Shown here: piece after piece, positions 5,877 to 63,999 of the stretch
How the letters are laid out: every line of letters starts with the position of its first letter
Numbering within the stretch: the stretch's first letter is position 1
Origin: a virus
UHGV virus genome: UHGV-1374697
DNA length: 64,000 nt
Direction: 5' to 3' (one strand)
Translations under genes and position numbers: made by a program
The notes under the pieces: model-generated
The model's database searches: none
Told to the model about the DNA's origin: nothing
What the model saw: only the letters and a program-made list of their open reading frames with translations

Positions 5877-5904
5877 AGCGGTAATTATAGAAACACACAC
5901 AAAC

Positions 5905-7193: not shown

Positions 7194-7194
7194 T

Positions 7195-7701
7195 ATGCAC
7201 GCTCACGAAGCAATCAACGCAATCGTTTCAACCAAGGTAAACTCACAGGCTTTCCCCGACCTGCCGGAAGGAAAGGAATCCATGAACGATGCCGTCAACC
7301 ACCCGAAGCATTACACCTCCCACCCCAGCGGAATCGAGACCATAGAAATTACTGGCAAGCTTCCCTTCGCGTTAGGGAACGCCGTCAAGTATTTGATGCG
7401 GTCACAGTACAAGAAGGACCGTATTGAAGACCTCAAGAAAGCACGGTGGTATCTCGAATACCACGCTAAGCACTGGTCCAAGGTGTTCGAAACCTTTGAC
7501 CTTTACCTTATCCTTGAACAGTTCAGGCGTACAGTCATGAGCCATAGCTACCAACGTAGCCCCGAAGATTCCATTCTGGTACGGCTCTTCTATATCTGGG
7601 CGCATGATAAGTTGGTTGAGGTAAACCCCGCATCGGAATTGCAACGATGTATCGGCGAGATTACCCAGCTAATAGAATCCCTCGAAGCGAAACAGAACTA
7701 A
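7195..7701 (+). CDS. hypothetical phage protein with NHPKHY motif (DUF3310-like, recalled from memory)
   Basis: AVNHPKHYT...GIETIEI resembles the conserved NHPxHY core of a phage-restricted family. Family assignment unverified. Confidence 0.4.
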   Translation: MHAHEAINAIVSTKVNSQAFPDLPEGKESMNDAVNHPKHYTSHPSGIETIEITGKLPFALGNAVKYLMRSQYKKDRIEDLKKARWYLEYHAKHWSKVFETFDLYLILEQFRRTVMSHSYQRSPEDSILVRLFYIWAHDKLVEVNPASELQRCIGEITQLIESLEAKQN

Positions 7702-7709
7702 AACAAAAA

Positions 7710-7738
7710 CCCCGGAAGGTATTTCCTTCCGGGGTTTT
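7710..7738. terminator. bidirectional rho-independent terminator between convergent gene blocks
   Basis: Perfect 10-bp stem CCCCGGAAGG/CCTTCCGGGG with loop TATTT. Flanked by an A-run upstream and TTTT downstream, so it works on either strand. Confidence 0.6.
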
Positions 7739-7824
7739 CGCTTAGAACCCAAACAACTTACAGTCCAAACAGAATGATGTCGTTGCGGATTCTTTATACC
7801 ATGCAGTACCTATGATGTCAATAC

Positions 7825-8881: not shown

Positions 8882-11800
8882 CTACTGCTTCATCCGATTA
8901 TGAATTTCCTCCGCACTCAATGCCCCGTCAATCTGAATGCTACCCTTCCTCATGAGGTTGATAATGAGTTTCTTCTGCTCTTCGATTAGGCGTTTGCCCT
9001 CGTCCGTGGTATTAGACTTCTGCAATTCGCGGTTGAGCTTCGCGATAGCCTCACGTCCTGCTTGCGGGCTGATGATGTAGGGCATGATGCCTTTCATGGC
9101 CGCGCCGTAGGTCTTGGCACTCATACCGGAACTCTCAATCGCGGAAGCCAGAACTTCCTTCCGCAGAGCGGGGTCAAGCATGTTTGTAATTTCCGTAACA
9201 AACCGGACACTATTGACTAGCTTGGTGAAATTCTTCACGGCATCCGCGGTTTCCGCGGCTTCCATAGATTCCACATCCACCCCGGATTCCATTCTCTTGT
9301 AGAAGTCCGGACGAAGGACGCTCATTCGCTTCGACTTAGTGACCGCCGCGTTGGCATTCTTTAACCCGGCGGCAAGGGCTTCGGTCAAATCCTTCGGACG
9401 ACGGAGGCCCGCACCCAAGGTCTGTAACCCGTATGCCGCGGCACTCATGTCGGGCGTATCACTAAACATTTGTTTACCAGACTTGACTGCCCAGCCGTAG
9501 ACGGGAATCTTTTTATTGGCAACCGTCGCGAATCGTTCAAGGACTTGCCATGTATGTCCACTGCCGAACGAGGGGTTCAGCCCTGCGGCCAACAGGATTG
9601 CGTTGCCGACTGCCGGGAGAACGTTGACACTTTCATCACCGGAGAGGCTATGCTTGTAATTGAAGTCTTCCTCATTAAACAATTCAGTAGCTGTGTTCAG
9701 AAGGAGGGATTCTTCAAGCACCGTATTTTCCAGCAGGTTTTTCAGTTCGGCAACCTTGTTCATCCCCCACTTGTCCACATCCATATCCATGAAGAGGCTG
9801 GGCAGGGTTTTGGCTAACACCCTGATGGTCTTGAACGGGTTCATGTATTCAAGGTTCAAATACTCGAACTCATGTCGCTTCATATCTATGATGCCAATCA
9901 AGTCCCCGAACTTATCATAGTCAGGAATTAGCCCACTATCTGCCAGCTTCCTCATGACTTCCGCGTCGTCAATGATTTTACGGTCATCGTCATCTCCCAA
10001 GACACTGGCGATAATCTGTCGGGCAACCCAGGAAGAGACCGCAGAGGTTGCAGAAATAGTTCCAAAGGAACCCGCGGCACGAAGGATAGCGCGTCCCAAG
10101 AGGTAAGCCCCCTCCTTCTTCATGCCGTTATTGATAGCCCACACACCGTCTACCCCTTCACCTATGGCGTGGCCAAGGTTGTAGGCTACAGACTGGAAGG
10201 TATGGTACTGGAACATGAAGAACGGAGCCGCAACTATATTCAGGGTTTTCACCCACGAAGGAGTACGCGAACCCGTGGGGAGCAAGCTCTTCACCATGTG
10301 GGCAGTATACCTGTCCACATAAGCATCCCAACTCTGGGTAGTCTGGCTCGCGTCAAGGAGTATCTGGTCCCGCGCATTGGGGTTGTCCTTGCCCATCGCC
10401 CGCGCCAGTTGTACCTTTAATTGGGTATCGGCAATCGCTCTCTGGTTAGTGAAGAGAACAATCTTGGCCGCCGCGTCCGGCAAGCCATAGGCGAAGGACA
10501 TCGTTTTGATGGGCCATGCTACGACTTTGCCCGCCATCTTGGCGGCATCCTTAGCCACCTCGCCCTTCGTCCGTTCCTGTTTCTCGTTCAGAGCTTCGGC
10601 CAGTTTGAAGAAGGAATCCTCATTCACTTCTTCAAATTCTCCTGCCATCTTACTGAACTCGTCAGACTTCCAGACGTTGCGCAGGAACTCCCCTTGACCT
10701 GCGTCCAGCAGACCAAGCTCTTGCCAGTAGCGAATCTTCTCGTTGTACCTGTCTTCCGCGGCCAGCAGTCTATCCGCGGAAGCCTGTGAAGCAAGGTCCT
10801 TGCCCTGTGATAGCCGCCGTAGCTTACGCAACTGGACCCAGTCCCCGACAAGGTTTGCGATGTCTTTACTCCCCGTGAATGGAAGTGCACCCGCATGGGT
10901 CATTTGAGCTACTGTACCATATAAGTTACGTAACGTGGAATTAGGGCTCGCTATTAAGACAGAAAGGTTAGCCAAGCCACCCGCCTTACTCCACCATCCT
11001 TGCCCCTTGCCGGACTTCTGCCAGTACTCGCGGACCTTCTTATAGTCATCCGTCCTGCTATTCAGGATGTCGTCGCTCGGCCTATAGATGTGGTAGATGG
11101 CATCAGCTACATCCTTGTCGGCGTACATTCCGTTCAACGCATTCTTCGTATTCTTCAAGGAGATTTCCACCATGTCCGAGGTACGGTTTGTGGAATTCGG
11201 GGGTACGACCACACCCTGCGCTTTCAGTACGGAGGCATACTCGTCAGCAAGCAACTGGTTCACGGCAATCTTCGACTGCATGGATAGGGTATTCTGCAAT
11301 GTCCCAATGGCGTCCCCAATGGTGAGGTCGCTAAGTTCATACATAGCTTTCCTCTGCCATTCGGGCAAGCGTTTCCGCTGGGCCAGCGCATCTTCATTCG
11401 TCCTCTTCTTGGACAGAACTTCGTCAATGGCCTTCATGGCATCGTTCACCGCAAGACGGGAGAGTTCCGGATACTGCAACACTTTCAAGTCGGTAGCGGA
11501 GATGACGTTGCCCATATTGTTCGCCCTCATGAGAATGCCCGCCTGACCCCGGAGAAGATTGAGCGTCTTGTCCAGTCGTTCTGCGGCATTCATATCAGGC
11601 GTGTTCCATATCTGGTCGATGGCCGAAGTCGGGATAGTGGGGATGGCCTTGTTCACTTCGGAAGCCACGGATGCCGGGGATTCAAGACTGCCGATTTTGT
11701 CCGCAATCGTTTCTCCCGGAAGGTCGGAGAAGACTTCGGCGAGGAAACTATCTCTGGCATTCCTGTCCAGAGTTTCCTTCGTCTCTGTCATCTTTGACTT

Positions 11801-14800
11801 CGTGCGATAGTCTGCCTGTGCTATCATGCTCATGGCCTTATCATATATGGCACTGATGTTATGGCCATCTCGCAGGTCTGCAAGCATTTGAACCGCGCCG
11901 AAGTTGTTCTGAATGAAGTCCAGAATTTCCCTGTTCCTGTAGTTCTTGGCTACACCTTCGAACAGGAGTTTATAATTCGCGGAGGCTCTCGGTGGAGCGG
12001 ATACCAGCGGAAGTTTCAACTCGTCGTGGAGCGCGGCCAATGCCTGCATGTTGTCCAGCACTTGGCTTACGTTTTCGGATAGTTCTCTCTGGTGCGCTTC
12101 GGCATGAGAGATTGCGGCTTCCTGCAACAGTTTCGTCAGACCGTCGTATTTCTGCGCCAGTTCTCCGTTGGGGTTTGCGATGATGTCCTTCATCGTCCGG
12201 GTGAAGTCTCCGGCATGGCGTCCTACGGCCATGTAGGTGCGATGAAGATAATTCATCTCCGCGGCGTTGTCAGCCATGCGGCTATCTCCAATGAGCTTGG
12301 CAATAGAGATTTGCGTTGCGGCAATTTCTTTACGGGAATCGGCGATGACATTGTGGACCAGTTGACCTACAACCCCCTGTGACAGAAGCCACTGTTCAGC
12401 GGCATCCCGCTTAGCCATATACTCCGCTTGTTTTTGACGGCGTGCATTGAGGATAGCGTTGTCCCGTTTCAGCCACACGGAACCGGCAGGGGTAGCTACG
12501 CCAGCGCGAGTTACACCCGCCTTCTTTGTTGCGGCGTAGAAATCCTCCTTGGCTTCCCGGATGATTTGTTTAGCTTCGGCCCGTGCCTTAGCGATGTCCT
12601 GAATCATAGGAGCGATGGCGGGATGGTTTGTACTCTCCGCATAGAGATAGTCATTGCGAAGGTTGGACCACCTGTCCAGAAGTTCATCCATAGAGAAGGG
12701 ACTATCCACCTCGTTAATCATATCCGCGAGATAGTTTTGCGTGTCGCGGGCAAGGCCAAAGTAGGTGGCTTCCAGATTGGCATTCCCCGTCGCGGAGATA
12801 CGAGAGCCAAGGTCGGAGAGCGATTTGTGAATCTGCTGGGAGAGCATGGGGAGAGCTACCTGCTTGTCCAGCATGGCTCCATATCCCTTGCCGCTCATGT
12901 CTTTAATCCGGCGCATCATGTCGTTGATTTCCAATCGCCCTTCACTATTAAGCGCAAGGGAGTTAGCCAGACGCACCGCTTCCGCGTGCCTATTGACGGC
13001 ATCGGTGACGGTCTTCTTAGCCAACGCGATACGGAAGTCGCGGGTCTGTTCATGCTGACGAACTTCTGCTTGAGCCTCTGCGTTAATGCGTGCAACGGTT
13101 TCAGGGTCAATGTCGTTGTCCATATTCCCTGACATGTCGAGAATGGACTTGCTCCATTTCTTTCGCGTAGCGGCATCCCAGCCCAGATTATCCGCACGGC
13201 GTTGAAGCATATCGCCGATTTTGTCAATGCGTTTAATACTGCGTTCATACGCCGCATTCACGTTTGCCATTTGTTCCAGCACAATCAGCTTCTGTTCCTC
13301 GGACTTAACATTGATGCCAGCCTTGTCCCAGTTCTTGGTTACACCCAGCCATCCGTTCTTAATACTAGTTACCCAGTTCCCGGCATTCGTGCCAATGATT
13401 TCTGCGCCAAGGCCGAAGGACAATCTCCGGGTCATGTCAGTCTCATAGGCCATCGGGTTAAAATAATCTACCCCGTTGCCCATAGTATAATCCGTATCGT
13501 CTACCTTCCACGACGGAGTGCGAGGCATATCGAACCACTTGCCGGGGGTCATGTCCGCGACGCGGGCCACATAGGAATCCCATTCAGCCGCGCGTTCTGC
13601 GGCGGTGGTTCCGTCCATATCGTCCGCAGTTTGTCGCACGTCCCTAATCAAATCCTTAAGCCATTCGACGAGGCGCACATGAATAGGCTTCCGGCCTCCC
13701 GCCGCTTCGGCATAGCGAGCCAAATCCGTGATGGTGATATTGTCTCCGCTAGCTTCCGCTACCATGAAGTTCATGACAGGATTGGAGAACGCGACACTGG
13801 CAAATTCGTCCGGGCCGCGGAGACCATAGTTGAGGTCGGAAGCGAGCGCGGCGATGGCATTCATCTCATTGATGTCCACGCTAGCGTCATACATAGCGGA
13901 GAGACTATCGACAATGTTGTTGTAGTTCTCTGCAATCGCGCTTCTAATCCTATCCATCCGCTGGGAATAGTCCGTGTTGGTGGTACGAAGATGACGGTCA
14001 ATGAGGTGGATGACTTCGTGTAGTACCGTTCCCGTTACGCTTTCAATCGGGTTATCCCGGTTCACGTACAGGTCAATGACACCGCCGACAAGCTTCCCGT
14101 CCGTGCCGTTCATGTAGGTGATACTGGCAGGGGAAGAGATGTTCGCCGGGGCATTGGTTGCACGGATAGCAACATCCAAACCAGCGGCATGCAGTGCGCG
14201 GAGCACTCCATCAATGGCCGCGGCCTGTGCGGGGGAGGCATTAACTTGAAGGTCCGAAAGGATGCCGTAGGCATTTGCGCCAGTCCCATCCGTCGGGAGA
14301 TTGAGAGCGGAGACCTTGTCTCCCCACTTGGTGCTGGGTGTCCCTCCCTCGCCCGTGTTGTACATGCTTGCGTGCGGAGCGATGACAATGGTTTCTCCCG
14401 TGTTGCTGGTAATCATGGGGGCGTTAATCCCGGTCATCTCGTTCAGGGAGACGAGCTTCGCGCCGCGCTCCAATGGCGTACCATAGGAGAGCCACGCACC
14501 AGTATTACTATCGAACGAGGCGATTGCCGCATCCATGTTATCCACAGTTTCCACGGAACTGGGGGTAACTACTCCCGTCTCTACCATAGCGGCAACGGGG
14601 GCAATAGCATTGTCCCTCTCCTTCCGGGCAATAGCTACCGGGGATTCCTTGGGTTCCGCGGTAGCCGTGGTAGCCGTGGTAGCCGTGGGTTCCGTCAATC
14701 CGTTAATAACGTTAATGGCGGCATCAAGGTCCTCGTCCCCTGTAGTAATGATGGACAGGTCGTCGTCTACTTCGATAACCTGAACCCGGTCTCCCATAGC

Positions 14801-17800
14801 ATCAAGGGCTTCGGACAACATGGTGCGCATGGTGTCGAGGTTTTCCTTATTTGGGAATGACAGGGTATTGGGCAGGTCGTTAATGGCTTCTGCCATGAAT
14901 GAGCTTGCCGCGGCACTGCCCTCATAGGTATATATTTCGGAGGCCCGTTCCACTAGGTTGCGGAACTGGGTGAAGTTGCTGATGCCCATACGGGTTGCTC
15001 CTTCCACCCACGCCTTGCGGGTTTCATCGGAGACTGCCAGACTTTCATGGGCAATGGATTTGTCCACCCATTCGCGGGCAACTTCCGCGGCATCCCCCTT
15101 CTCCCCGGCAATCTCGATAACCTTCTTTCCGGTTTCTACCAAGCTTTCTGGTACGTTGTTTTTGGTAATGGCTTTGCCCGTTTCCTCGATGATGTTGCTC
15201 GCATCTTTCGTAATATCCGGTAGCATGGAAGTAGCATCCTTTACATCTAGGGTGGGAACGGCTTCGGTTTGGAAACGTATGTTCCCTTCACCAGCTAAGT
15301 GGCTACCAACGTAGCCGCCGATACCACCAAGGAAAGCAATCTTCATGCCTGTGCTAATCACTTGGTCAGTAGTGGCAATAGAGGATTCGGAGATTTCTCC
15401 GTTCTTCACCAGTTCGGTAAACGCCCACTCTTGGAATTCGTCTGTCAGTTCTTCGGTGGCTCCTTCCACTACGGCCTTGCTCGTGCTGTACAGATAGGAA
15501 GCAACGGCAAACGTCTTTTCCTTCGTGTTCATCTCCTTAAATGGCTTGCTTCTCCATCCGGCAATCTTCCGTTCAAGGGTTTGGAATGGAGATTGACCGC
15601 GAAGGTTTTTAGCCCCAATAATCTTACGCATGTAGGAATCCATACCTGCGCGGTTGTTGATGAGAGTACTACCAGTAGATACGAGAGCCGCGCCAAAGAG
15701 GGCACGCATGTTAGCAATGCTCTGTGCCCTGTTCAAGTTCTCGGCAGTCGGTTCCTTCCCTTCCATCTCCCTATCATAAATGGTATAGAAGATGTCGGAG
15801 TAAGCATTCGGTGCAACCTGCGAGATGATGCTAAGATTTACCCCGGCTCCGGCTCCTGCCCGTTCGAGGTTCAACGCCGCAAGGTTGTCAAGGTTGCGCT
15901 GAATAGTTCCACTCAAACGTCCCGCCAATCCCGGACGGGCGGCAGGGACAAGAGCTTCGGCCCGCTTCGCTACAACGTTAGCCGTTGCCTTCATGAATTT
16001 ATTGAGCGCGGTACGTTCCAGTGCACGGCCAGCGAGGCCGCCAACTTTACCAGCCCCCGCGGTTGCTACCATTTGGTAGCCGAGGTTAGCGATTTCCGCA
16101 GTATAGTCCGCAAGGATATTGCCTCGAACCAACTCGGCTTCTGCTTCCTGTTTTTTGTTCAGCTGGTCCCAGAGGGTGCGGGTATGTTCCATCGCCGCAC
16201 GACTGCCAACTGCATTCTGTGCAAAGAGAAGAGCACCATAGGCGGTACTTGTCCCAAGGTCGATTGCCTTGTGCGTACCTATCTGTAACCCGCGGAGAAC
16301 AGAGTTGATGGTGTCTTGCCCTTTCTCCTGCCATGCGGAGAGGATGTCCTCGTCGCTCTTGCCCGCTTCCTTCTGTTCGTTGTAAAAATTCTTGAAGGAA
16401 AGGTGCTTGTCCAGATGCTTCATGGATTCAGTCAAGATAGGGTTGAACTGCAAGCCGGAGCCAAGCCACGTATCGCGAAGCGTCCCCAGCGTCTCGTCCA
16501 ATGCAATGTTGTCCTTCACAAGTTCCTGTGCGGATTTCTTGCGGAGGTTCTGGAACTTCTCAATGGTGCGATTGATGAGACCTTCGTCCGCGCCACTAGC
16601 ACGGAGAGCCTCAATGCTCTGGTCCATCAGCTTATCATTGTAGAGAGCATTGGGGTTCAGTTCGAGTGTGGCGTTCGTATCAACTTCCTTGGTGTGCGGG
16701 TTGTACACAAAGAGACTGCCACGGCCTACGCCCAAGTCACCCATGCGTGCGGCATGGGAGAGGGAGTTGAGGGCATCGCGAGTACTTTCAATATGGTACT
16801 GGTCCATGTACTCCTTCAACCTCTCCGGTCCGACTTCAAAGGATGGGCCGCCCGGCATGCCATACCACCATGTGCCACGCTTCGTTCCCTTCCTCCATTC
16901 CATCAAACTCATTGGGTCAGCGTACTTACCCACACTATTATCCGGTTGGAAGGTAAGTACGTCCGCAATTTGTCCCGCCGTGCTTCGGTAGTTAGCCAGT
17001 GCGCCTTTGACTGCATCCATGAGAGTGCCTTTCGGCGTGGCTTTGGCGGTATAGTCCTGAATCAGTTTGGTTACTCCCGCTTGGCGCAGGGCAGATTTTG
17101 GAACCCCCGGAAACCTTGTGGCCACGGCTTCCAGTATAGCCTCACTCATGCCAATCTGTTCGGGGTTTTCGACGGTCAGAGGGCGGTCCTTCTGGCGGTG
17201 AACTTCCTCGGCAATGACCTTTGCCCGTGCACGTATTGCGTCCATGTCAGCACCGGGGACTAAAGACAGAAGGGCAGAGGCCGCGGCCTCTGGATTGAGA
17301 AGCGCGTCGCGAAGTTCGAGATAGGGAAGGCCAGTGTAGTCCTCTTCGAGGCGTCTTACGATTTTGTCGGCTGTTTCTATCTGTTCACGAATCCTATCCT
17401 CAACAGGTTTTTCTTTTTTTGAAATGAGTTTTGCTTGGTCTGTATGGAGTTGTTTCGCATATGCGGTAGCAGATTCCGGGGAATCGAAAACTCCTAGATG
17501 CTTCCCTGTTTTTCGGAATTGTTCTATTGCTTCCTTTTCCGTTAAAAGTCTTCCATCTTCGGATACTGTGGGAATAAGGTATTCTTTATCATCAACCCCT
17601 ATGGACATAGACCGTACCGTACTCACGGAACCATCAGGGTTTTTAACTTGAGGGCGTTGATTCAAATCGAGATTACCTGCCTCCACCATACCAGAGATGT
17701 CGGTCAAAGCCCGATTTCCCGATATATAACTACCACTGTTCCGGGAAAGGTAATCCCCGTAGTCGCGGACAAGTTGGAACATTTTGCTGGGAGACTTGGA

Positions 17801-18808
17801 AAGGTTGGCGAGTTCAGCAAAAACATTCCCAGTAAATGAAGGTGCTGAATCAGAGAATTCGCCAACGCCAAGCTCCCCCACGCTCGTTTGGCTGGGGGTT
17901 TTCTTCTGCAAGCCCTCTGTCGAAGCGGCCCGGTATTTGTTGTAGAGAGACTTCGCGGCTCGGTAGTTGTCAATGTCTTCGCGCCTAATCGTATTGATGA
18001 CGCTTTCTATTTCTTCTGCGGTGTAAGCAATAGGTGCGGTCTCGATGGCTTGCGCCGTAGGTTTACCAGACACAACATCTAGATTCGAGTTGAGGTAATC
18101 CTTCCGGGCCTTTTCCATTGTGTTTGCAATGGATTTGGCCACCGCCTTTGCGTCCCGGTTTCTGTCCGCGGCAATGGCGAGGAACTTTTCCGTTACCACG
18201 GGGTTCCCATCTTCTCCACTTCCGAAGCCAGAGCGGGATAAGAAGGCGGGGTGCGTAGGCGTAAGCTCGGAAGAAGACACAACGGTAATTCCCGTATTGT
18301 TGGCAAGCTTCTTAAGGGCCTCACTATCGCCGCGGGAAGCGGCCTTCAAATCAACCAGCGCATCTTCGCCGCGGTCTACGTAATCTTTCGCGTCATCAAT
18401 CTCGACGAAGTTGAATCCACGGTTTCCACGGTTCAAGACACCGAGGGCTTTCTGCTCTTCCGCGGCTTGCCATCCGGCTTCCGTATGCGCCCTGCTCTTC
18501 TTGTCCCATTCCGCTTCATTTGCATCCTTGGCTTTCTGTGCCTGTTCCTTCTCAAAGTCATCGACAGACTTAAAGAGGAAGGTGTCATAGTCTGCGGTCG
18601 CCGTCGCTCCCTTCTCGGCACGGGTCTGTCTCTTTTCCGCTAACCTTTGCTCGCGGTCCAGTGCTTTCTGTTCTCGGTCCTGCTGTTTCTGCGCTTGCGT
18701 CTCTTGCCACGCGGCGTGCCTTTCTGCGGCACGTGATTCACGCGCGATACTACTTCCCGACGTCGGAGTGAAGTCGGACATATTGGCGGTACTAAAATCG
18801 ATGGCCAT
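8882..18808 (-). CDS. giant multidomain virion/ejection (polyvalent-type) protein, 3308 aa
   Basis: Uninterrupted 9.9-kb ORF. HExxH zincin-like motif (TVLHEVIHLID); hydrophobic channel-like segments near the C-terminus; long coiled-coil N-terminus; sits in the structural block. No RNAP DxDGD motif found. Confidence 0.7.
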   Translation of the reverse strand: MAIDFSTANMSDFTPTSGSSIARESRAAERHAAWQETQAQKQQDREQKALDREQRLAEKRQTRAEKGATATADYDTFLFKSVDDFEKEQAQKAKDANEAEWDKKSRAHTEAGWQAAEEQKALGVLNRGNRGFNFVEIDDAKDYVDRGEDALVDLKAASRGDSEALKKLANNTGITVVSSSELTPTHPAFLSRSGFGSGEDGNPVVTEKFLAIAADRNRDAKAVAKSIANTMEKARKDYLNSNLDVVSGKPTAQAIETAPIAYTAEEIESVINTIRREDIDNYRAAKSLYNKYRAASTEGLQKKTPSQTSVGELGVGEFSDSAPSFTGNVFAELANLSKSPSKMFQLVRDYGDYLSRNSGSYISGNRALTDISGMVEAGNLDLNQRPQVKNPDGSVSTVRSMSIGVDDKEYLIPTVSEDGRLLTEKEAIEQFRKTGKHLGVFDSPESATAYAKQLHTDQAKLISKKEKPVEDRIREQIETADKIVRRLEEDYTGLPYLELRDALLNPEAAASALLSLVPGADMDAIRARAKVIAEEVHRQKDRPLTVENPEQIGMSEAILEAVATRFPGVPKSALRQAGVTKLIQDYTAKATPKGTLMDAVKGALANYRSTAGQIADVLTFQPDNSVGKYADPMSLMEWRKGTKRGTWWYGMPGGPSFEVGPERLKEYMDQYHIESTRDALNSLSHAARMGDLGVGRGSLFVYNPHTKEVDTNATLELNPNALYNDKLMDQSIEALRASGADEGLINRTIEKFQNLRKKSAQELVKDNIALDETLGTLRDTWLGSGLQFNPILTESMKHLDKHLSFKNFYNEQKEAGKSDEDILSAWQEKGQDTINSVLRGLQIGTHKAIDLGTSTAYGALLFAQNAVGSRAAMEHTRTLWDQLNKKQEAEAELVRGNILADYTAEIANLGYQMVATAGAGKVGGLAGRALERTALNKFMKATANVVAKRAEALVPAARPGLAGRLSGTIQRNLDNLAALNLERAGAGAGVNLSIISQVAPNAYSDIFYTIYDREMEGKEPTAENLNRAQSIANMRALFGAALVSTGSTLINNRAGMDSYMRKIIGAKNLRGQSPFQTLERKIAGWRSKPFKEMNTKEKTFAVASYLYSTSKAVVEGATEELTDEFQEWAFTELVKNGEISESSIATTDQVISTGMKIAFLGGIGGYVGSHLAGEGNIRFQTEAVPTLDVKDATSMLPDITKDASNIIEETGKAITKNNVPESLVETGKKVIEIAGEKGDAAEVAREWVDKSIAHESLAVSDETRKAWVEGATRMGISNFTQFRNLVERASEIYTYEGSAAASSFMAEAINDLPNTLSFPNKENLDTMRTMLSEALDAMGDRVQVIEVDDDLSIITTGDEDLDAAINVINGLTEPTATTATTATAEPKESPVAIARKERDNAIAPVAAMVETGVVTPSSVETVDNMDAAIASFDSNTGAWLSYGTPLERGAKLVSLNEMTGINAPMITSNTGETIVIAPHASMYNTGEGGTPSTKWGDKVSALNLPTDGTGANAYGILSDLQVNASPAQAAAIDGVLRALHAAGLDVAIRATNAPANISSPASITYMNGTDGKLVGGVIDLYVNRDNPIESVTGTVLHEVIHLIDRHLRTTNTDYSQRMDRIRSAIAENYNNIVDSLSAMYDASVDINEMNAIAALASDLNYGLRGPDEFASVAFSNPVMNFMVAEASGDNITITDLARYAEAAGGRKPIHVRLVEWLKDLIRDVRQTADDMDGTTAAERAAEWDSYVARVADMTPGKWFDMPRTPSWKVDDTDYTMGNGVDYFNPMAYETDMTRRLSFGLGAEIIGTNAGNWVTSIKNGWLGVTKNWDKAGINVKSEEQKLIVLEQMANVNAAYERSIKRIDKIGDMLQRRADNLGWDAATRKKWSKSILDMSGNMDNDIDPETVARINAEAQAEVRQHEQTRDFRIALAKKTVTDAVNRHAEAVRLANSLALNSEGRLEINDMMRRIKDMSGKGYGAMLDKQVALPMLSQQIHKSLSDLGSRISATGNANLEATYFGLARDTQNYLADMINEVDSPFSMDELLDRWSNLRNDYLYAESTNHPAIAPMIQDIAKARAEAKQIIREAKEDFYAATKKAGVTRAGVATPAGSVWLKRDNAILNARRQKQAEYMAKRDAAEQWLLSQGVVGQLVHNVIADSRKEIAATQISIAKLIGDSRMADNAAEMNYLHRTYMAVGRHAGDFTRTMKDIIANPNGELAQKYDGLTKLLQEAAISHAEAHQRELSENVSQVLDNMQALAALHDELKLPLVSAPPRASANYKLLFEGVAKNYRNREILDFIQNNFGAVQMLADLRDGHNISAIYDKAMSMIAQADYRTKSKMTETKETLDRNARDSFLAEVFSDLPGETIADKIGSLESPASVASEVNKAIPTIPTSAIDQIWNTPDMNAAERLDKTLNLLRGQAGILMRANNMGNVISATDLKVLQYPELSRLAVNDAMKAIDEVLSKKRTNEDALAQRKRLPEWQRKAMYELSDLTIGDAIGTLQNTLSMQSKIAVNQLLADEYASVLKAQGVVVPPNSTNRTSDMVEISLKNTKNALNGMYADKDVADAIYHIYRPSDDILNSRTDDYKKVREYWQKSGKGQGWWSKAGGLANLSVLIASPNSTLRNLYGTVAQMTHAGALPFTGSKDIANLVGDWVQLRKLRRLSQGKDLASQASADRLLAAEDRYNEKIRYWQELGLLDAGQGEFLRNVWKSDEFSKMAGEFEEVNEDSFFKLAEALNEKQERTKGEVAKDAAKMAGKVVAWPIKTMSFAYGLPDAAAKIVLFTNQRAIADTQLKVQLARAMGKDNPNARDQILLDASQTTQSWDAYVDRYTAHMVKSLLPTGSRTPSWVKTLNIVAAPFFMFQYHTFQSVAYNLGHAIGEGVDGVWAINNGMKKEGAYLLGRAILRAAGSFGTISATSAVSSWVARQIIASVLGDDDDRKIIDDAEVMRKLADSGLIPDYDKFGDLIGIIDMKRHEFEYLNLEYMNPFKTIRVLAKTLPSLFMDMDVDKWGMNKVAELKNLLENTVLEESLLLNTATELFNEEDFNYKHSLSGDESVNVLPAVGNAILLAAGLNPSFGSGHTWQVLERFATVANKKIPVYGWAVKSGKQMFSDTPDMSAAAYGLQTLGAGLRRPKDLTEALAAGLKNANAAVTKSKRMSVLRPDFYKRMESGVDVESMEAAETADAVKNFTKLVNSVRFVTEITNMLDPALRKEVLASAIESSGMSAKTYGAAMKGIMPYIISPQAGREAIAKLNRELQKSNTTDEGKRLIEEQKKLIINLMRKGSIQIDGALSAEEIHNRMKQ

Positions 18809-57586: not shown

Positions 57587-60532
57587 CTATCCTACGATTA
57601 CTTCTTGGCGTTGTTTGTCCTGTTCTTCCCATTCGGGGAAGTCCCGATACCAACGGGCCTTAGTACTGTCGCTTGCGTACTTGAGCCAGTCTTCTACATG
57701 GAGGAACCTCATGCGCCGTCTTCCTCCCGACACCTGTTTCGTTTTCCACCATGCTTCGTCTTGGAAGTAAGTGGTGATGGCGGTCTTGAACCCTGCGAGG
57801 GACTGACGCTTAGGAGCGTTAGCGGAACGCGGCTGGTCCGTCACCACCCCCGTATCTCGGATGGTGTAGAGAATATGCAGGAGAGCTTGCGGCCCCGTAT
57901 AGGTGATGGGAATATGCTTCCACAAAGGATTGCCCTCCTTATCCGTATCTATGTCCCAATCAACCGGACGAAGCTGGGTCACAAGGGATTCCTCCGCGGA
58001 TTCCCGCATGCCATACTTGGTGTTTATCTCTTGGGACTTCTGCACCACCATGCTTACAAGTTCGCTAACATCCTTGCTTAGCGAGTGGTAGTTCTCATAC
58101 ACCTGCGCCCATAGTTGCTGTATATCTATGGAATCACGAACCTTCTTCGCCGTAGCTAGGTCCCCTCCCATACTGCGGACATAAAGGACAGAGTAGCGGC
58201 GGTTCCCCGTGGCATCCGTCAGTGGGTTGGGGTCGTTGGACGTACCAATGAACACCGCCTTCGGCTTATACATCCGCTGGTCACGCTGGTATGCCGCACG
58301 GGTCTTGGCGGGCTGGATGTCAAGAGCATTCTTCACTTTGTTCGCGTCCTCCGGGTTAGAGAGGATTCGGTCAATCTCGTCCAGCTGGATAACATGGGTA
58401 CTGCTCTTCTGCACGATAGCATCCTTCTCATTATGGATGTCAAAGCTACTCGTGAAGCATCCGGGATAGTCGGCAAGGAGCTTAGAGGCCCAGTAAGATT
58501 TACCGCTACCTTGGCTACCAATGAAGATGGGGCAGAAGATGGGGCACATGTTATTAACATCTTCCATCGACTTCTCCATGTGGTCGAGGACGGTGTAGAG
58601 CCATGTACGAAGCACGAAGTCCAGCCACTCTTCTTCGGTATAGCCTTCCGGGGCCATGCCCTCTTCCAGTTCAAGAGTACGGATGTACTGCCCCACTCGG
58701 TCAATACCATCCCAAGGTTTTACGCACAAGGTGGATGCGAGGGGGTGGTAGAAGAAGTTGGTGGAGATACTGCGGAAGGTTGCGTCCAGTTCGTGTTGCA
58801 ATTTGGAGGTAGCCGTTCCTACTGCCAGATAGCTGGCCCACTTGCCCGCGATGTGGTTCACGAACTCCGGGTCGTAAGGATAGAGCCTTCGGCTCACGAG
58901 GTCCAGCACCAGTTTGGTCTCATTAGCTACATCGGTCACAATGCGGAGACCAATGGAGGCAAGAAGGAAGCTAACATTAACGAATGATACGGAAACGATG
59001 TCCTTCTTGGGGTCCTTCATGGGGAAGTCGAGAGTAGCCCAGCGTTCAGGTTTCTTTGCCTGATAAGCCTTCCCCTCCGGTAAGGGTCCGGTCTCGGCAA
59101 GGATTTTCTTTAGCTCTGCGTCGGGGTTATATATCTTATCCAGCAAGGATTCAGATTCAGCATCCGTAACCGGAGGGGTTATGGTGGCAATGTCTCTGTT
59201 CTCGATGTCCAGCACATACATGCGGAACAGGTCATTCATGCTCTTCACCTTCCGGTCCTTGTCTTGGCAGGAGCTATGGAGGCAATGGAACCATGAGGTA
59301 GATGGGAAGTCCCGGACAATGTTGAATTGCAGGTCACGGTCGGCACGGTGTCCCGTGCATACGCTTGCGCACGCGGGGCACATGCCGTACATGTGGTTCC
59401 CCTCCCAGCGCATTGCCCGGAAGCCCTCGGCCTGTTCGGCGTAGCCATTATCGTCCAGCCACTTGGGGAACTCGGAGATAAGAATGGGAAGCGGGTCCCG
59501 CTCGGTCAGGAGGTCATCCTCTGCCGCGGGAGCCACGGTTTCCTTGGTAGCCCGTTCGACCAGCTTGTCAAGGGAGGGCACGGTAAATACCTGCGGCGTA
59601 TCTTTATCCCGTTCCACCAACTCCCCGTGGTAGAGGAACTGCAACCGGGAGATGTCCTTACATGCGGGGTCGCAGGTCAGACCGGAGAGGTTGTACACTT
59701 GGTCCCACAGGTATTTGCAGATTAGCTGGTGGCGAGCCTGACGAATAGCCGCGACGTACTTGCCCATATCCGGGATATGGGAATCCGTGGAATCCGTGGA
59801 TTCCGGGGGTTCCGAGATGTTGAGAGCCTCGCGTGCCCGTTCATCGACTTGGACGAAGAACTTGAACCCGCCACTGGGGCTGACGTACCCGAACAAGTAA
59901 CCGGGCAAGTGGGAGAGCTTATCCTCGGCAATGCGTTTAAGTTCCTCCGTAGTGGCGGGGTTCGTATCTTCATCCTTCTTCTTTAGGTCAATGTCCAGAC
60001 CAATGATGCCGGAGTGGGACCAGAAGGAGATAGCCCGGCGCAATGCGGTACGCGGGTCAACGGTCTTCTTATTCTCGCCCAGCATAGATGGGACGGAATG
60101 GAAGATGACGGAAGGGATGAGGGCAGGAAGCGCGTTCTTGACCTTCACCTCGCCATCTGGGCTGTTCTCCTTCCATCGGGTATAGACCTTCTCATAGGCG
60201 GGAGCCAATGGCGCACGAAGTGGCCGCCCTGCCTGTTTATCGAGAAGGAGTGATAATTGGAGACTTGTCTTTAACCGCTCGTCCGCGATGTCGTTACTGC
60301 GGAGGAAGTTAATGAGACAGTCGATTGTAATTGCCTGTGGATTCTTCCCGCTTCCGGTAAAGACGCGAGGAGCGTTACTCCGCTCCAACAAATCCCAAGG
60401 CGTGGGGATTAGAGTAATGGATTGCATACTTTTATGAATGAGGCCGGTGGAGCGTGGACGGCGTAGTCCGCACCCTCGTGGCCTATGGTTTGAATTGCCG
60501 TCCGGAGGTCGAACGGTGTCCGAGGCTACCAC
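57587..60532 (-). CDS. bifunctional AEP primase (PrimPol-like) / SF3 (D5-like) helicase
   Basis: AEP motif I IIGLDIDLK; motif II-like SPSGGFKFF; zinc ribbon CPACASVC...HCLHSSC; SF3 Walker A FIGSQGSGKSY; Walker B HVIQLDEID. The annotated start is GTG, so the true start may be a downstream ATG. Confidence 0.8.
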   Translation of the reverse strand: MVASDTVRPPDGNSNHRPRGCGLRRPRSTGLIHKSMQSITLIPTPWDLLERSNAPRVFTGSGKNPQAITIDCLINFLRSNDIADERLKTSLQLSLLLDKQAGRPLRAPLAPAYEKVYTRWKENSPDGEVKVKNALPALIPSVIFHSVPSMLGENKKTVDPRTALRRAISFWSHSGIIGLDIDLKKKDEDTNPATTEELKRIAEDKLSHLPGYLFGYVSPSGGFKFFVQVDERAREALNISEPPESTDSTDSHIPDMGKYVAAIRQARHQLICKYLWDQVYNLSGLTCDPACKDISRLQFLYHGELVERDKDTPQVFTVPSLDKLVERATKETVAPAAEDDLLTERDPLPILISEFPKWLDDNGYAEQAEGFRAMRWEGNHMYGMCPACASVCTGHRADRDLQFNIVRDFPSTSWFHCLHSSCQDKDRKVKSMNDLFRMYVLDIENRDIATITPPVTDAESESLLDKIYNPDAELKKILAETGPLPEGKAYQAKKPERWATLDFPMKDPKKDIVSVSFVNVSFLLASIGLRIVTDVANETKLVLDLVSRRLYPYDPEFVNHIAGKWASYLAVGTATSKLQHELDATFRSISTNFFYHPLASTLCVKPWDGIDRVGQYIRTLELEEGMAPEGYTEEEWLDFVLRTWLYTVLDHMEKSMEDVNNMCPIFCPIFIGSQGSGKSYWASKLLADYPGCFTSSFDIHNEKDAIVQKSSTHVIQLDEIDRILSNPEDANKVKNALDIQPAKTRAAYQRDQRMYKPKAVFIGTSNDPNPLTDATGNRRYSVLYVRSMGGDLATAKKVRDSIDIQQLWAQVYENYHSLSKDVSELVSMVVQKSQEINTKYGMRESAEESLVTQLRPVDWDIDTDKEGNPLWKHIPITYTGPQALLHILYTIRDTGVVTDQPRSANAPKRQSLAGFKTAITTYFQDEAWWKTKQVSGGRRRMRFLHVEDWLKYASDSTKARWYRDFPEWEEQDKQRQEVIVG

Positions 60533-60564
60533 GGGTTCCGGGGGTTGTCAAGTAGAATCTACGA

Positions 60565-61090
60565 CCCTTAACAAGCATGTAACAAGCAAGATTTAGAGTA
60601 GTTGTTACGGTAAGTTATTGAGTATATACGACTTAACAACTATAACAAGCATAACAAGCAAAAACCGTAGTTAAACGTGTACGCACTCGTCCTCGTGCCG
60701 TATGGCGGTCGCGCTACGCGCTCCGCGAACCATGTTTTTATGATAGGGAAAGGGCTAACTCGGAAAGCGATTAAAACTGAATGAGTTAGCGTAACAACCT
60801 ATCAAAATCTCGATGTAAGATGTTAAGAGCCAAGTACTTAACAGCTGAAGCTCGAAAGAAGTTGTTACGCTGGGTCATTGATAATAAACGACTTAACAAC
60901 TATAACAAGCAAACAAGCAAATTCTACAGACTCTATATATGTGTATATAAGGCCTCCCCTATACCCCTCTTTTCTTATATAACTACTATTTTTGCTTGTT
61001 TTGGTTGTTATAGTTGTTAAACTATTAAAAAAGAAGGGGTTAGCGTAACAACTACTCTAAATCATGCTTGTTATAGGTTGTTAGTAGATG
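60565..61090. repeat. iteron cluster (AACAAGCA / GTAACAAC family) in direct and inverted orientation; candidate replication origin or packaging region
   Basis: ACGACTTAACAACTATAACAAGCA(T/A)AACAAGCAA occurs at 60628-60660 and 60888-60920. Inverted copy TTGCTTGTTTTGGTTGTTATAGTTGTTAA at 60993-61020. An inverted block at 61038-61082 mirrors 60571-60610. A GC-rich block (60677-60735) is embedded. Confidence 0.6.
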
Positions 61091-61387
61091 TTACAAGATT
61101 GAGAATGAACGGATTAAGAGAACAGCATTGGGCGTCAGCCACTTATGAGTATGGGGTTCTCCGGCTAAAGAAAAACCCTTCGGAAGCAGGACATGCCTAC
61201 CTCCGAAGGGCTACGCCTTGGGAACATCAACCTAGGAGATGGGTGACAGGAGGGCGTTGCTTCGAGTAGGACTTACCTACTACCTTACTGCCTACCCTCC
61301 ACGCGTTGCCCTCCTGTCTGGCCGTATAATACCAGCCCCATCGAAAAAGTCAAGACAATCCTCTGCCAATATGTTATTTTGTTATGC

Positions 61388-61403
61388 ACGCGTATATACG
61401 CGC
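61388..61403. promoter_or_regulatory. perfect 16-bp palindrome CGCGTATATACGCG (operator-like)
   Basis: Read directly; lies in the non-coding hub just upstream of direct repeat 1. Confidence 0.4.
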
Positions 61404-61437
61404 CCACATGTGTGTACGCCCCCTTTCCAAATCTCCT

Positions 61438-61504
61438 GAATTTAATCGAGCGTCCTACCCTAGAACGCGCCGCAACCCTCCCTCCGCTACAACTATCCAC
61501 CCGG
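61438..61504. repeat. 65-bp direct repeat, copy 1
   Basis: GAATTTAATCGAG(C/G)GTCCTACCCTAGAACGCGCC(G/A)CAACC...CCGCTA(C/T)AACTA(T/C)CC(A/G)CCCG, shared with 61916-61982. Confidence 0.5.
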
Positions 61505-61574
61505 ACCCCGTCCCCTCCTTCTACCCCGCCACACTGGATTAAATTCGTAAACGCGCCATCACACCAATTTCCTC

Positions 61575-61602
61575 TTGACTTTCTCCCCTGATGTGATATG
61601 TT
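61575..61602 (+). promoter_or_regulatory. sigma70-like promoter TTGACT-N16-TATGTT
   Basis: CCTCTTGACTTTCTCCCCTGATGTGATATGTTGC. No ORF follows within 60 codons. Confidence 0.45.
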
Positions 61603-61608
61603 GCACCT

Positions 61609-61770
61609 GTTCGCTCCGAACGGCAACCGAACCAGCTAAGCCCAATGCTTCTGGCTATCCCAAGCGGGGAATCCGCATGCCACAGGAGCGGACTAAACAC
61701 TCTCCTTTCTACAGGCATTTTCCATAGTTACGCCCGTGGGTAGTCTCGTCAAGCTACCTGCGGGCTTTTT
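61609..61770 (+). ncRNA. candidate ~160-nt small RNA bounded by promoter and intrinsic terminator
   Basis: Promoter at 61575-61602 and strong terminator at 61732-61770 on the same strand. No coding potential in between. The unit is flanked by 65-bp direct repeats. Confidence 0.35.
61732..61770 (+). terminator. rho-independent terminator
   Basis: GCCCGTGGGTAG-TCTCGTCAAG-CTACCTGCGGGC (12-bp stem including 2 G-U pairs) followed by TTTTTCTTTG. Confidence 0.55.
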
Positions 61771-61915
61771 CTTTGCCGCCAAATCCGCGAGAGCCGCTCC
61801 GTCGCATTATGCCCGCCGTGCGCAAATTTGGTCGATGGTAGTGCCCTATCTCCTGTTTCATGACTAATGTACCCACTCGCTACCTATACCCCGTCACACT
61901 CTTGTAAATTTGCCC

Positions 61916-61982
61916 GAATTTAATCGAGGGTCCTACCCTAGAACGCGCCACAACCGCTGGTCCGCTATAACTACCCGCCCGA
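61916..61982. repeat. 65-bp direct repeat, copy 2
   Basis: See copy 1. About 90% identical by eye. Confidence 0.5.
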
Positions 61983-62113
61983 AGAGTATGCCCGCCTTCT
62001 AGGTTGATACGTCCCCCCGTGGACTAGCCGCGTGTCGATTTTTCTTGACTAGGCGGGGATGGGGTGCAGACCAGATGAGGCTGAAACAGACCAGAGGTCA
62101 TGACCATCATGTT

Positions 62114-62131
62114 GAACCCACGGAACCCACG
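62114..62131 (+). repeat. tandem GAACCCACG 9-mers (GAACCCACGGAACCCACG) in non-coding DNA
   Basis: The first 16 nt (62114-62129, GAACCCACGGAACCCA) match 29759-29774. Lies between two TGTCGATTTTnCTTGAC promoter-like elements (62037-62051, 62176-62190). Confidence 0.45.
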
Positions 62132-62894
62132 CACCCCGCGAAGCGGCCATGACCATGTACCCACCCATGTACCCGCCGCATGTCGATTTTGCTTGACAAC
62201 CGACAACCGACATGCCCAGAAGGGTACTCCCTCCCCCGTACCCCACGGAAAAAATTTGACCCAACTATTTACTATGGGCCGCGTGCAACCCCGGAGCCTG
62301 GGAAACCGTGGTGGTGTTTGGATTTTCTTGGTATCCAATTTCCCCCTATACCTACGGAATCGGTGCATCACGGAACCTTTTTGCCTCTGATTGCACCGGG
62401 AACGGTATATCCCGGGGGGGCCTGCCTATCCCCCACATGCACCGGAATCGGTAAGATAGGCCACCGTGTTGCAACGGGAACGGTATACCACCTGCCCTGA
62501 ACTGCCACCGCCCCTGTCATGGGAACGGTACGCCATGCAACCCATTGAATCCTCGGAATCTGTTGCAACCGTCTGATGATAAGGAACTTATGGTATAAAG
62601 AGGTCTGTAGGTCTCCGGGGGAACCGAGGGTGCAATACCTGTTTCCCACTGACACCCTGATATGCGTAACTCGTTGATACTCTAGGCAATCCGCTTCCAT
62701 ACTTCGCATAATACATATAATGCAAAATCGCATTCCGGTTTTCCTACTAATCCGATAGGAATTGAAATTGAAGGTGCTGGAGAAGGCAGGAAAGGGGCAG
62801 GGTCTTGCCCTCAAATTGTTCAACTCTGGACGGGTTAAGTATCAACAACATATGAAGCATACCCTAGGGGGTATAGGTATCCTTCCCTCATTAA

Positions 62895-62913
62895 TAGTCA
62901 AATATTGGACTAA
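62895..62913. promoter_or_regulatory. operator-like imperfect palindrome TAGTCAAATATTGGACTA (second copy at 63045-63063)
   Basis: Half sites TAGTC/GACTA. Two copies 150 bp apart, immediately upstream of the 18-bp tandem array whose unit contains GGACTT. Confidence 0.4.
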
Positions 62914-63067
62914 TGGCTTTTACATTTTTGTAAAAGCCCTATATCTTGTATGTCAAATTGTCACACCCCTATATCTTGCGTACCTGTAGCGGTGCAATCG
63001 GCAGGCGGCCAGTCCTTGCGGTTTTGCCGTCAGATAGTCAAATATCGGACTATCTATCTTCAAAGAT

Positions 63068-63273
63068 TGTTAGACCGGACTTATAAAGTTAGGCTGGACT
63101 TAAAAGTTAGGCTGGACTTATAAAGTTAGACCGGACTTAATAAGTTAGGCTGGACTTATAAAGTTAGGCTGGACTTAAAAGTTAGGCTGGACTTATAAAG
63201 TTAGGCTGGACTTAAAAGTTAGTCCAAACTTAAAATGTTAGGCCGGACTTAATAAGTTAGACGGCACTTACAA
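63068..63273. repeat. tandem array, about 11 units of 18-19 bp (GTTAGGCTGGACTTAWAA)
   Basis: Units are contiguous and alternate ...TTATAAA / ...TTAAAA. No spacers, so not CRISPR. Confidence 0.7.
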
Positions 63274-63319
63274 GGGAGGAATGTTTAAGAATCCTTAATA
63301 GTTATGAATCCTTAACTAT

Positions 63320-63385
63320 CTTGAAGCCCTTGAAGCCCTTGAAGCCCTTGAAGCCCTTGAAGCCCTTGAAGCCGTTGAAGCCGCT
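63320..63385. repeat. 9-bp tandem repeat CTTGAAGCC x7
   Basis: Read directly; the last two units read GTTGAAGCC. Confidence 0.7.
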
Positions 63386-63487
63386 ATCCCACCACAACCG
63401 ATTGCCCGAAATTGTTCCATGTGGAACATTTTAAGGCCAAAAGATACCAAAAGAATACAAAAGAATCCCCTACACTATATATATAAA

Positions 63488-63533
63488 AGGGGAACCGGGG
63501 GAACCGGATACCGGGGGAACCGGGGGAACCGGG
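63488..63533. repeat. tandem GGGGGAACC(G) repeat, about 5 units
   Basis: GGGGAACCGGGGGAACCGGATACCGGGGGAACCGGGGGAACCGGG. Confidence 0.6.
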
Positions 63534-63714
63534 AATCATGGATACCGAAGGGTTGTATGACACAATTATAACACGCAGATAGTCAGCAGGTTACAACGCG
63601 CCGGAAAGAAAACCGCTTGACGCACCCGGCAATCATGTTAAATTGCAATCATCCAACGGGGAACAACCCCCGGACAATGAGAACACTAATTAAATAGATA
63701 GGAGACCACTAATC

Positions 63715-63999
63715 ATGATTATCAACATCATCATCAATCGCAGGTGCGGCCTCATTAACTATGACGCCGCTACACATCTTAAAGCTATCTATGACTACGC
63801 AACCGCCGCCGGACTGTCAGACCTAGCCCGTGCGTTGGATAGCGGAAAAGAAGCTGATGTTAAGGCCGCTCTCATGCACTATGTCATCAATGGGGGTTGC
63901 AACCCGGACATCCACCACTACAACATGTTTGACTTGTGCTTATTTATCAACCGGGTGCGGTGGACGGATGAAGAAGAAGAATCTGCTGATACTGAATGA
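63715..63999 (+). CDS. hypothetical protein, first gene of the rightward plus-strand block
   Basis: 94-aa ORF preceded by AGGAG 11 nt upstream, the only clear SD-like element noticed in the window. Confidence 0.4.
   Translation: MIINIIINRRCGLINYDAATHLKAIYDYATAAGLSDLARALDSGKEADVKAALMHYVINGGCNPDIHHYNMFDLCLFINRVRWTDEEEESADTE

Follow-up and report, generated by a model that had tools for sequence, protein, structure and literature searches.

What is made by a non-coding unit that is bounded by its own promoter and terminator, and what would its product act on? The question is raised by positions 61575-61775 (plus strand) of the virus genome UHGV-1374697, of which we analysed a stretch of 64,000 nt (from here: the window). 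A reading of the letters alone (the sequence-only reading) had proposed a dedicated small-RNA gene in the phage control region, and the conserved promoter/terminator pair, the compensatory changes in the structure, the exclusion of coding and an accessible seed bear this core claim out. We regard the unit as very probably a new phage small RNA (sRNA) gene. As to its role, we lean towards a trans-acting sRNA of ~165 nt that competes with the 30S subunit for a motif in the ribosome-binding sites (RBSs) of the early genes and so collectively down-regulates the early block. The features of the unit are the following.

61575-61602, plus strand: promoter from a consensus scan, with the -35 hexamer TTGACT at 61575-61580, a 16-nt spacer, TG at 61594-61595 and the -10 hexamer TATGTT at 61597-61602
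61609-61772, plus strand: predicted transcript of ~164 nt, starting 7 nt past the -10 hexamer and ending in the U-run
61609-61693, plus strand: structured, branched 5′ domain of ~85 nt, from the minimum free energy (MFE) fold of the majority allele
61609-61617 / 61685-61693, plus strand: P1, the closing stem of the 5′ domain
61622-61624 / 61679-61681, plus strand: P2, within the 5′ domain
61632-61641 / 61647-61654, plus strand: hairpin P3, within the 5′ domain
61663-61668 / 61672-61677, plus strand: hairpin P4, within the 5′ domain
61694-61731, plus strand: single-stranded linker of ~38 nt between the 5′ domain and the terminator
61702-61711, plus strand: seed CTCCTTTCTA, located in this linker
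61732-61775, plus strand: intrinsic terminator with a 13-bp stem, 8 G-C pairs and an 8-nt loop (61732-61765), then TTTTTCTTTG

The window comprises most of a phage genome of ~71 kb that is known from human-gut metagenomes only. Contig L100 (JGI 3300045988, 71,261 nt) represents the same genome, with its position 5337 corresponding to position 1 of the window (60 identical bases), and contigs of related phages, 69-72 kb in length, are common in the gut assemblies of IMG/VR and ENA. Leftward genes extend from 60427 to ~7800 and encode a primase-helicase, PolA, a helicase, a nuclease, the terminase, structural proteins and an open reading frame (ORF) of 3308 aa. The rightward genes start at 63715, continue past the window end, where the genome wraps, and on through window positions 1-7701. 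The two sets are separated by an ORF-poor, repeat-rich region of 3.3 kb (60428-63714), which holds the RNA unit.

The sigma70-like promoter TTGACT-N16-TATGTT that had been claimed on the plus strand is present and has an extended -10 TG in addition. It is invariant or almost so among ~60 relatives. Sites of the sigma-70 type occur eight times in the surrounding 2.5-kb region, compared to 2.9 ± 1.8 in shuffled sequences, and throughout the window there are 26 sites of the form TTGAC-N-TAnnnT where 5.7 ± 2.1 are expected. Since these sites are enriched, co-oriented with the genes and mostly located in intergenic gaps, the promoter of the unit is of the type used by this phage. The Bacteroidota-type motif TAnnTTTG was found without enrichment (28 instances, 28.3 expected). 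The terminator stands as well, while its stem has 13 rather than the reported 12 bp; it is directly followed by the T-run TTTTTCTTT and is unchanged among the close relatives save for one G-to-A substitution in one lineage. For the predicted RNA between these signals the MFE is -58.9 kcal/mol (z = -3.5).

As had been stated, promoter and terminator enclose no ORF of at least 60 codons; the longest ones have 50 aa (plus strand) and 59 aa (minus strand), and none of at least 50 codons was found downstream of the promoter. A small protein was considered and ruled out by a 1-nt deletion in L043 and the loss of a start codon (ATG-to-AGG) in L068, by which the small ORFs on both strands are broken; moreover, these ORFs lack a Shine-Dalgarno (SD) sequence or start context. 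Searches of the whole window against Rfam 15 returned no match at the gathering threshold, and nothing over the unit at E-values up to 10, while the homologue from the distant relative L079 gave sub-threshold, chance-level matches only. ARAGORN predicted neither tRNA nor tmRNA genes in the window.

Whether related phages conserve the promoter/terminator pair had been set beforehand as a test, and the pair is kept in all: every relative whose sequence extends to the region carries the unit. The comparison covered 60 fetched loci from human-gut metagenomes, some of which are one contig obtained from two collections; they comprise 29 different sequences across 224 nt, with 23 different versions of the transcript. 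Within the transcript 20 columns vary, six of them in P4; of the remaining 14, 13 are unpaired (Fisher p = 0.0035). In hairpin P4 the alleles GCAAG/CUUGC and GCGG(G)/(U)CCGC alternate, with two pairs changed on both sides (A-U to G-C) and one G-C pair changed to G-U (8 of the 17 distinct sequences). The G-U pair in P4 fits an RNA made from the plus strand. In L012 and L013, whose primase is 67% identical, the unit is 98% identical while the adjacent sequence drops to 55-70%.

Two further lineages were reached via the primase, which is 49% identical in L079, whereas the L082 primase is 36% identical to that of L079. Together with the window type (W) this makes three lineages for comparison, of which W is nearly invariant. 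Both distant genomes carry a diverged unit in the syntenic non-coding region, with unchanged orientation relative to the rightward genes. Their similarity to the window unit was undetected by blastn, while a covariance model built from window-type sequences recovers the L079 unit at E = 0.005. The promoters read as follows.

L079 unit promoter: TTGACA-18-TAGATT with extended TG
L082 unit promoter: TTGACA-17-TAAATT with extended TG

In both, an RNA of ~115 nt is followed by a terminator of 15-17 bp, so that the layout promoter, domain, seed and terminator is common to all three units. The closing stem begins at the seventh base past the -10 hexamer in 3/3 lineages, and the first five pairs of P1 are kept by compensatory or wobble changes (GUUCG/CGGAC in W, GGUUC/GGACC in L079, GGUCC/GGGCC in L082). 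Two compensatory pairs and several wobble changes distinguish the L079 terminator from that of L082, and the sequences of both differ from that of the window. Further pattern scans of IMG/VR yielded no more lineages, and a genome scan gave unrelated or chance matches only. That scanning also showed four intergenic loci in Planctomycetes (L085, L086, L089, L092) with a conserved structured element ending CTGGCTA...GGACCACCTCCTTTCTA, which is not rRNA and belongs to no Rfam family. It may be another free-standing copy resembling the tail of 16S rRNA, or possibly a coincidence forced by the search pattern.

What the three transcripts share in sequence is short. The 9-mer TCCTTTCTA (61703-61711) is invariant in all three lineages, and UCCUUUCUA followed by YWGG is the longest block common to the three kinds of transcript and the sole long block across lineages (window CUCUCCUUUCUACAGG, L079 CCCUCCUUUCUAUUGG, L082 CUUCCUUUCUACUGG). 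It is positioned 85-95 nt from the 5′ end of the RNA and ~20 nt before the terminator, with a predicted probability of being unpaired of 0.72-0.78, compared to ~0.46 for the whole RNA. The 3′ end of B. subtilis-type 16S rRNA is 5′-GAUCACCUCCUUUCUA-3′ (PMC5427494). UCCUUUCUA is identical to the 3′ end of such Bacillus-type 16S rRNA, a tail that may not be the one of the host; in the L079 seed region 15/17 nt match GGAUCACCUCCUUUCUA.

The second half of the argument comes from the early genes. The small rightward early genes have a common motif, (A)UAGAAAG(A), which starts 16-17 nt before the ATG. As the early block lies mostly beyond the window end, it was read from L100 (1-5336), from L005, L010, L008, L006 and L002, from L079 (1-3060) and from window positions 63695-63717, with the first ATG of each ORF taken as a crude gene start. 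The exact heptamer TAGAAAG occurs at this spacing in 4 of the 5 first genes shown in L100, in 5-6 of the 12-13 early genes of the five relatives and in 5/6 early genes of L079. Elsewhere it was found at 2/54 leftward genes and at none of the 11 genes of window positions 1-7750. On both strands of the 64-kb window there are 7 copies, one of which is the antisense of the seed, without enrichment otherwise. In PMC5427494, UAGAAAG is listed as an SD motif whose partner is the very 3′ end of the Bacillus-type 16S tail. The fixed spacing of the heptamer fits such pairing. As far as the letters tell, this candidate SD element points to a rightward block whose translation would be initiated through the extreme 3′ end of 16S rRNA.

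With these early sites the seed can form 7 bp in the window lineage and 10-11 bp in L079. Duplexes between the seed and the start regions are stronger for early than for leftward genes, both in the W type (p = 0.026-0.043, equalled by 1 of 300 shuffled seeds) and in L079 (p = 0.009, with -12.6 to -15.2 kcal/mol at 5/6 genes). Within the window there is one candidate target.

63695-63717, plus strand: TAGATAGGAGAC, the RBS region of the first rightward gene, whose ATG is at 63715

This start region pairs with the seed at 10/11 positions and ranks third among 58 start regions; ahead of the first gene, the site reads TAGATAGGAGA in the window and CCAGTAGAAAG in L079. The idea of a single target, namely this first rightward gene alone, was abandoned since it fails in L082 and is ordinary in a genome-wide duplex scan, and the analysis at the level of the motif was substituted for it.

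The leftward genes differ in their start regions. SD-like 4-mers have a frequency of 13 in 61, which is near the estimated chance of ~0.22 per gene, and most leftward genes thus appear to be SD-less. In at least five of them (gene starts 8830, 29706, 35442, 47464 and 50508, minus strand) a -10 hexamer ends 5-7 nt before the ATG; because of this short distance, these genes are probably translated from leaderless mRNAs.

The proposed mechanism would run as follows. Transcription from the sigma-70-type promoter would begin precisely with the first nucleotide of the closing stem. The (A)UAGAAAG(A) sites of the early genes would serve as non-canonical SD elements that pair with the extreme 3′ end of 16S rRNA, and the seed, by presenting the sequence of this tail, would pair with the same sites. 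With its accumulation the sRNA would compete with 30S subunits and lower the translation of the whole early block, whereas the leftward genes, leaderless and SD-less, would be untouched.

Several points weigh against this proposal. In the W lineage the pairing is short (7 bp, median ~-8 kcal/mol), the site at 63715 takes the unremarkable rank 7042 of 42,648 in a genome-wide scan of duplex energies, and in L082, where three genes are visible, the motif is missing from the first early gene. A host 16S tail ending in ...CCUCCUUUCUA is presupposed both by reading UAGAAAG as an SD and by the idea of a mimic; the reference 3′ end is of the Bacillus type, and the real end in the host may differ. The motif could merely match the ribosome of the host, with the seed serving another target. 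As to the RNA itself, the W lineage is nearly invariant and most pairs are uninformative: 34/39 do not vary within it, two covarying pairs come from P4 and three lineages are known. The change in P4 is effectively one event, shared by recombination. The high identity of L012 extends beyond the transcript (61420-62100 and 62220-62500) and may reflect constraint on a larger control block or recent exchange or recombination. Finally, expression of the sRNA, its pairing in vivo, the direction of its effect and its timing are what we infer from sequence.

A broader version of the proposal, to which we give a low probability, is a global switch in which a free-standing copy of the anti-SD tail blocks UAGAAAG and AGAAAGGAGG sites alike, in the early block of the phage and in SD-led host messages. 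If true, ribosomes would be left to the leaderless or SD-less middle and late messages of the phage, and the RNA would be a counterpart of T4 RegA/RegB plus host shut-off.

The best-surviving alternative, though an unlikely one in our judgement, is a genuine sRNA with mainly host mRNA targets, either as a general competitor for AGAAAGGAGG-type SDs or as the regulator of one host gene. In the former version host translation would be shut down while phage messages without an SD or a leader continue, which agrees with the identity of the seed to the 16S tail, most extended in the 15/17 match of L079, and with the largely SD-less leftward genes, at least five of them leaderless. A conserved host target would also fit the persistence of the 9-mer across primases of 36-49% identity. 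However, the stoichiometry is demanding if a single RNA is to titrate all host SDs, half of the CCUCC core is missing from the invariant UCCUUUCUA, and the best-matching complement at a fixed position sits in the phage's own early genes.

We consider it improbable that the unit is the leader or attenuator of the rightward operon, in which read-through towards the genes from 63715 onward would be controlled by put-like antitermination or by a protein or ligand switch. Its orientation matches those genes, a structured RNA directly after the promoter and then a terminator is what a leader would look like, and several TTGAC promoter-like modules follow further downstream. Yet between the terminator and the next gene, which has a promoter of its own (63617-63644), there are ~1.9 kb of non-coding DNA, parts of which vary by indels. 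There is no evident alternative anti-terminator pairing, in L079 the unit faces a convergent unit instead of genes, and the conserved single-stranded 9-mer resembling 16S rRNA would be left unexplained.

Slightly less credible still is an element that acts at the DNA level, as a set of protein sites, an origin promoter or a priming transcript, with an RNA that has no regulatory role. The non-coding region of 3.3 kb next to the primase-helicase gene is rich in repeats and has iteron-like arrays, the GAATTTAATC motifs resemble protein sites, and in L012 the whole block 61420-62100 is kept, not the transcript alone. On the other hand, the iteron-like arrays are at least 1.3 kb from the unit, and the repeats are absent from distant lineages that retain it. 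G-U pairs and compensatory changes fit a plus-strand RNA, the terminator hairpin is kept with differing sequences in three lineages and the stem begins at the predicted start in 3/3. A strong terminator 160 nt downstream of the start would be unexpected in a primer; the replication-priming transcript offered by the sequence-only reading is disfavoured by this strong, conserved terminator and gives no reason for a conserved seed.

A decoy for proteins that bind the 3′ end of 16S rRNA (Era, bS21, maturation RNases or toxins that cut the anti-SD), hence a sponge that does not act by base pairing, is very unlikely: in two lineages the likeness to the tail does reach past the core (window AACAC(U)CUCCUUUCUA, L079 GGACCCCCUCCUUUCUA), but outside the 9-mer it differs between lineages and is lost in L082, and there is no evident context resembling helix 45. 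The guide-like RNA of the sequence-only reading, which would be a guide or scaffold for the phage TnpB nuclease (403 aa, encoded at 4665-5876), can practically be dismissed, as this sole RNA-guided nuclease gene is ~13 kb away on the circle and mobile within the family, lying between the primase module and PolA in relatives in which the RNA unit stays put, and as the RNA ends in an invariant terminator and not in a variable guide, while the source of TnpB guide RNAs is the 3′ end of tnpB with the neighbouring end of the transposon.

The surroundings of the unit contain several repeated elements, which stand apart from the RNA.

61435-61523, plus strand: left copy of a direct repeat, containing GAATTTAATCG at 61438-61448, upstream of the promoter and outside the transcript
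61913-62001, plus strand: right copy of the direct repeat, followed 42 nt further by a second TTGACT element at 62044
61537-61547, plus strand: inverted 11-mer copy GATTAAATTCG, ~28 nt upstream of the -35 hexamer and matching the start of both repeats
61389-61402, no strand: perfect palindrome CGCGTATATACGCG of 14 bp, kept in close relatives and replaced in L012/L013

Direct repeats of ~65 bp with about 90% identity had been described as brackets of the unit. They are real, with a lower identity of 56/67 (84%) between 61438-61504 and 61916-61982; the similarity is 38/40 over the first 40 nt and 79% over 89 nt (61435-61523 and 61913-62001). The left copy is kept in W-type relatives and in L012, whereas L079 and L082 lack both the repeats and the GAATTTAATC motif. 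Because they are missing from distant lineages that keep the RNA, and with no complementarity to 61609-61772, they cannot be counted as part of the unit. Each copy lies 42-51 nt upstream of a TTGACT element, which suggests lineage-specific upstream promoter modules outside the RNA. The 10-mer GAATTTAATC has just three sites in the 64-kb window (61438, 61537 inverted, and 61916), is invariant in relatives and is probably a regulator-binding site for the promoter of the sRNA and its neighbour. The palindrome, previously given as 16 bp, has 14, with the flanking A and C unpaired; it is lost in the L012 lineage and is not a needed piece of the unit. A template/variable repeat pair of a diversity-generating retroelement was rejected, since the differences between the repeats are not adenine-specific and no reverse-transcriptase domain was found among the ORFs scanned.

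Divergent from the seed-RNA unit, a second unit bounded by promoter and terminator is located on the minus strand (61165-61353). Its promoter is TTGACT-16-TATTAT with TG (61353 to 61326), and its RNA of ~155 nt has a perfect 11-bp stem (GACAGGAGGGC/GCCCUCCUGUC) and a 17-bp terminator (61212 to 61174); the fold has -70.7 kcal/mol (z -4.85). Compensatory changes occur in this terminator in L012 (CCCUUCGG to CCCCGG...), and homologues of it exist in L079 and L082, where the minus-strand unit is convergent with the seed RNA and not divergent from it. A predicted interaction between the plus-strand RNA and this unit was no better than with shuffled sequences.

Dense direct and inverted motifs of the type TAACAAC(TA)TAACAAGCA, with arms of up to 41 nt at 90% complementarity, fill positions 60560-61090, directly upstream of the primase promoter (60551 to 60523) and gene; they look like operators or iterons, and L012/L013 have a 315-aa gene in their place. 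Tandem arrays comprise ~12 copies of the 19-nt unit GTTAGGCTGGACTTATAAA (63069-63290), 8 copies of the 9-mer CTTGAAGCC (63311-63391) and GGGGAACCG repeats (63486-63535). In L079 the entire non-coding region is enclosed by arrays of the 9-mer GGTTCCGTG, which form a perfect 35-nt inverted repeat with arms 2.4 kb apart. The tandem arrays are possible origin or regulator sites. A module GCCGC(G/A)TGTCGATTTTGCTTGAC, consisting of an upstream element and a -35 hexamer, is found at 62013-62049 and 62161-62197, as an inverted partial copy at 60543-60562 and in L079 at 4123-4808; in the window it has no obvious -10, and in L079, which has four copies, one serves as the promoter of the seed RNA. Between the two window copies, the segment 62053-62177 is indel-variable among relatives, and L008 has collapsed to a single copy.

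The TnpB protein (plus strand, with OrfB_IS605 and a Cas12f-like TNB domain) is encoded inside a nucleotide-metabolism block with NAD ligase and ThyX. It is resident in the phage family at 75-100% identity; in L094-L097, where its gene sits between the primase module and PolA, it is partly truncated. The next homologues are at most 43% identical, and the named ones include archaeal and cyanobacterial proteins. This homologue search gave no host. DNA searches of INPHARED for near and distant relatives of the window returned none, as did a search with the terminase protein, and the matches of primase and PolA, at 24-29% identity only, belong to phages of many hosts and gave no host inference. 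The 3308-aa ORF (8882-18808, minus strand) has no PHROG match, and most proteins of the structural region match neither Pfam nor PHROG; the phage is therefore far from any described family. One contig of 219,338 nt (L095, ENA ERZ1314881 NODE_4) starts within the primase gene of this phage and runs through the replication module. This contig could represent a prophage, related strains joined in a concatemer or an assembly error, and might hold a clue to the host.

The unit thus represents a well-delimited, conserved RNA gene in an abundant, uncultured family of human-gut phages, outside every curated RNA family, for which both a candidate seed and candidate targets can be read from the genome. 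To our knowledge, regulatory RNAs of phages come from a handful of cultured phages and nearly always act on a single gene. If the proposal is true, early-gene shut-off would be timed simply, by RNA only and through competition with the ribosome, and start sites would be selected by the extreme 3′ end of the host's 16S rRNA.

Among known systems, the c4 RNA of P1/P7 and the sar RNA of P22 are phage sRNAs that block translation by pairing around the RBS, with their pairing sequences unpaired (reviewed in PMC12197685). The RNA described here resembles them as a phage-encoded sRNA with an exposed pairing sequence and the RBSs of phage genes as candidate targets. However, c4 is processed from the leader of the operon that it controls and acts on one mRNA (icd-ant), and sar is cis-antisense, whereas our unit comes with a separate promoter and terminator, lies ~2 kb from its closest candidate target and would address a motif of many genes. 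It shares neither sequence nor Rfam similarity with c4 or sar.

The CI RNA of the satellite phage P4, whose gene contains seqB between the seqA and seqC repeats, is likewise a small RNA gene bracketed by two direct repeats, an arrangement suggested for our unit by the sequence-only reading. In phage P4, the flanking repeats are the complementary targets of the CI RNA. An immunity RNA of this P4 CI or c4 type was rejected for the present unit, as its transcript has no complementarity to the repeats, the inverted 11-mer precedes the promoter, and neither L079 nor L082 has the repeats.

In T4, the repressor RegA and the endonuclease RegB shut off many early messages at the RBS, with RegB cutting GGAG in early SDs. 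They are functional analogues, but proteins, while the effector proposed here is an RNA, a mimic of what the SD pairs with in rRNA. A parallel is provided by RsaE/RoxS and RNAIII of Firmicutes, which have multiple targets, an unpaired pyrimidine-rich motif directed against purine-rich RBSs and an intrinsic terminator. In contrast, these are chromosomal RNAs of curated families with loop motifs of the UCCC type, none of which the unit RNA matches, and its seed copies the last 9-10 nt of 16S rRNA instead of the CCUCC core.

We found no phage RNA described in the literature as mimicking the 16S tail. The nearest systems are c4 and sar and, functionally, RegA/RegB, none of which has a seed resembling the 16S tail or a motif target in many genes. 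The closest likeness is to the 3′ tail of 16S rRNA itself: CUCCUUUCUA, the last 10 nt of the B. subtilis type, is identical, and the predicted partners beginning with UAGAAAG are the same, being known as Bacillus-specific SD motifs (PMC5427494). Unlike that tail, the copy in this phage lies outside the ribosome, within a 165-nt RNA that has a branched domain on one side of it and a terminator on the other.

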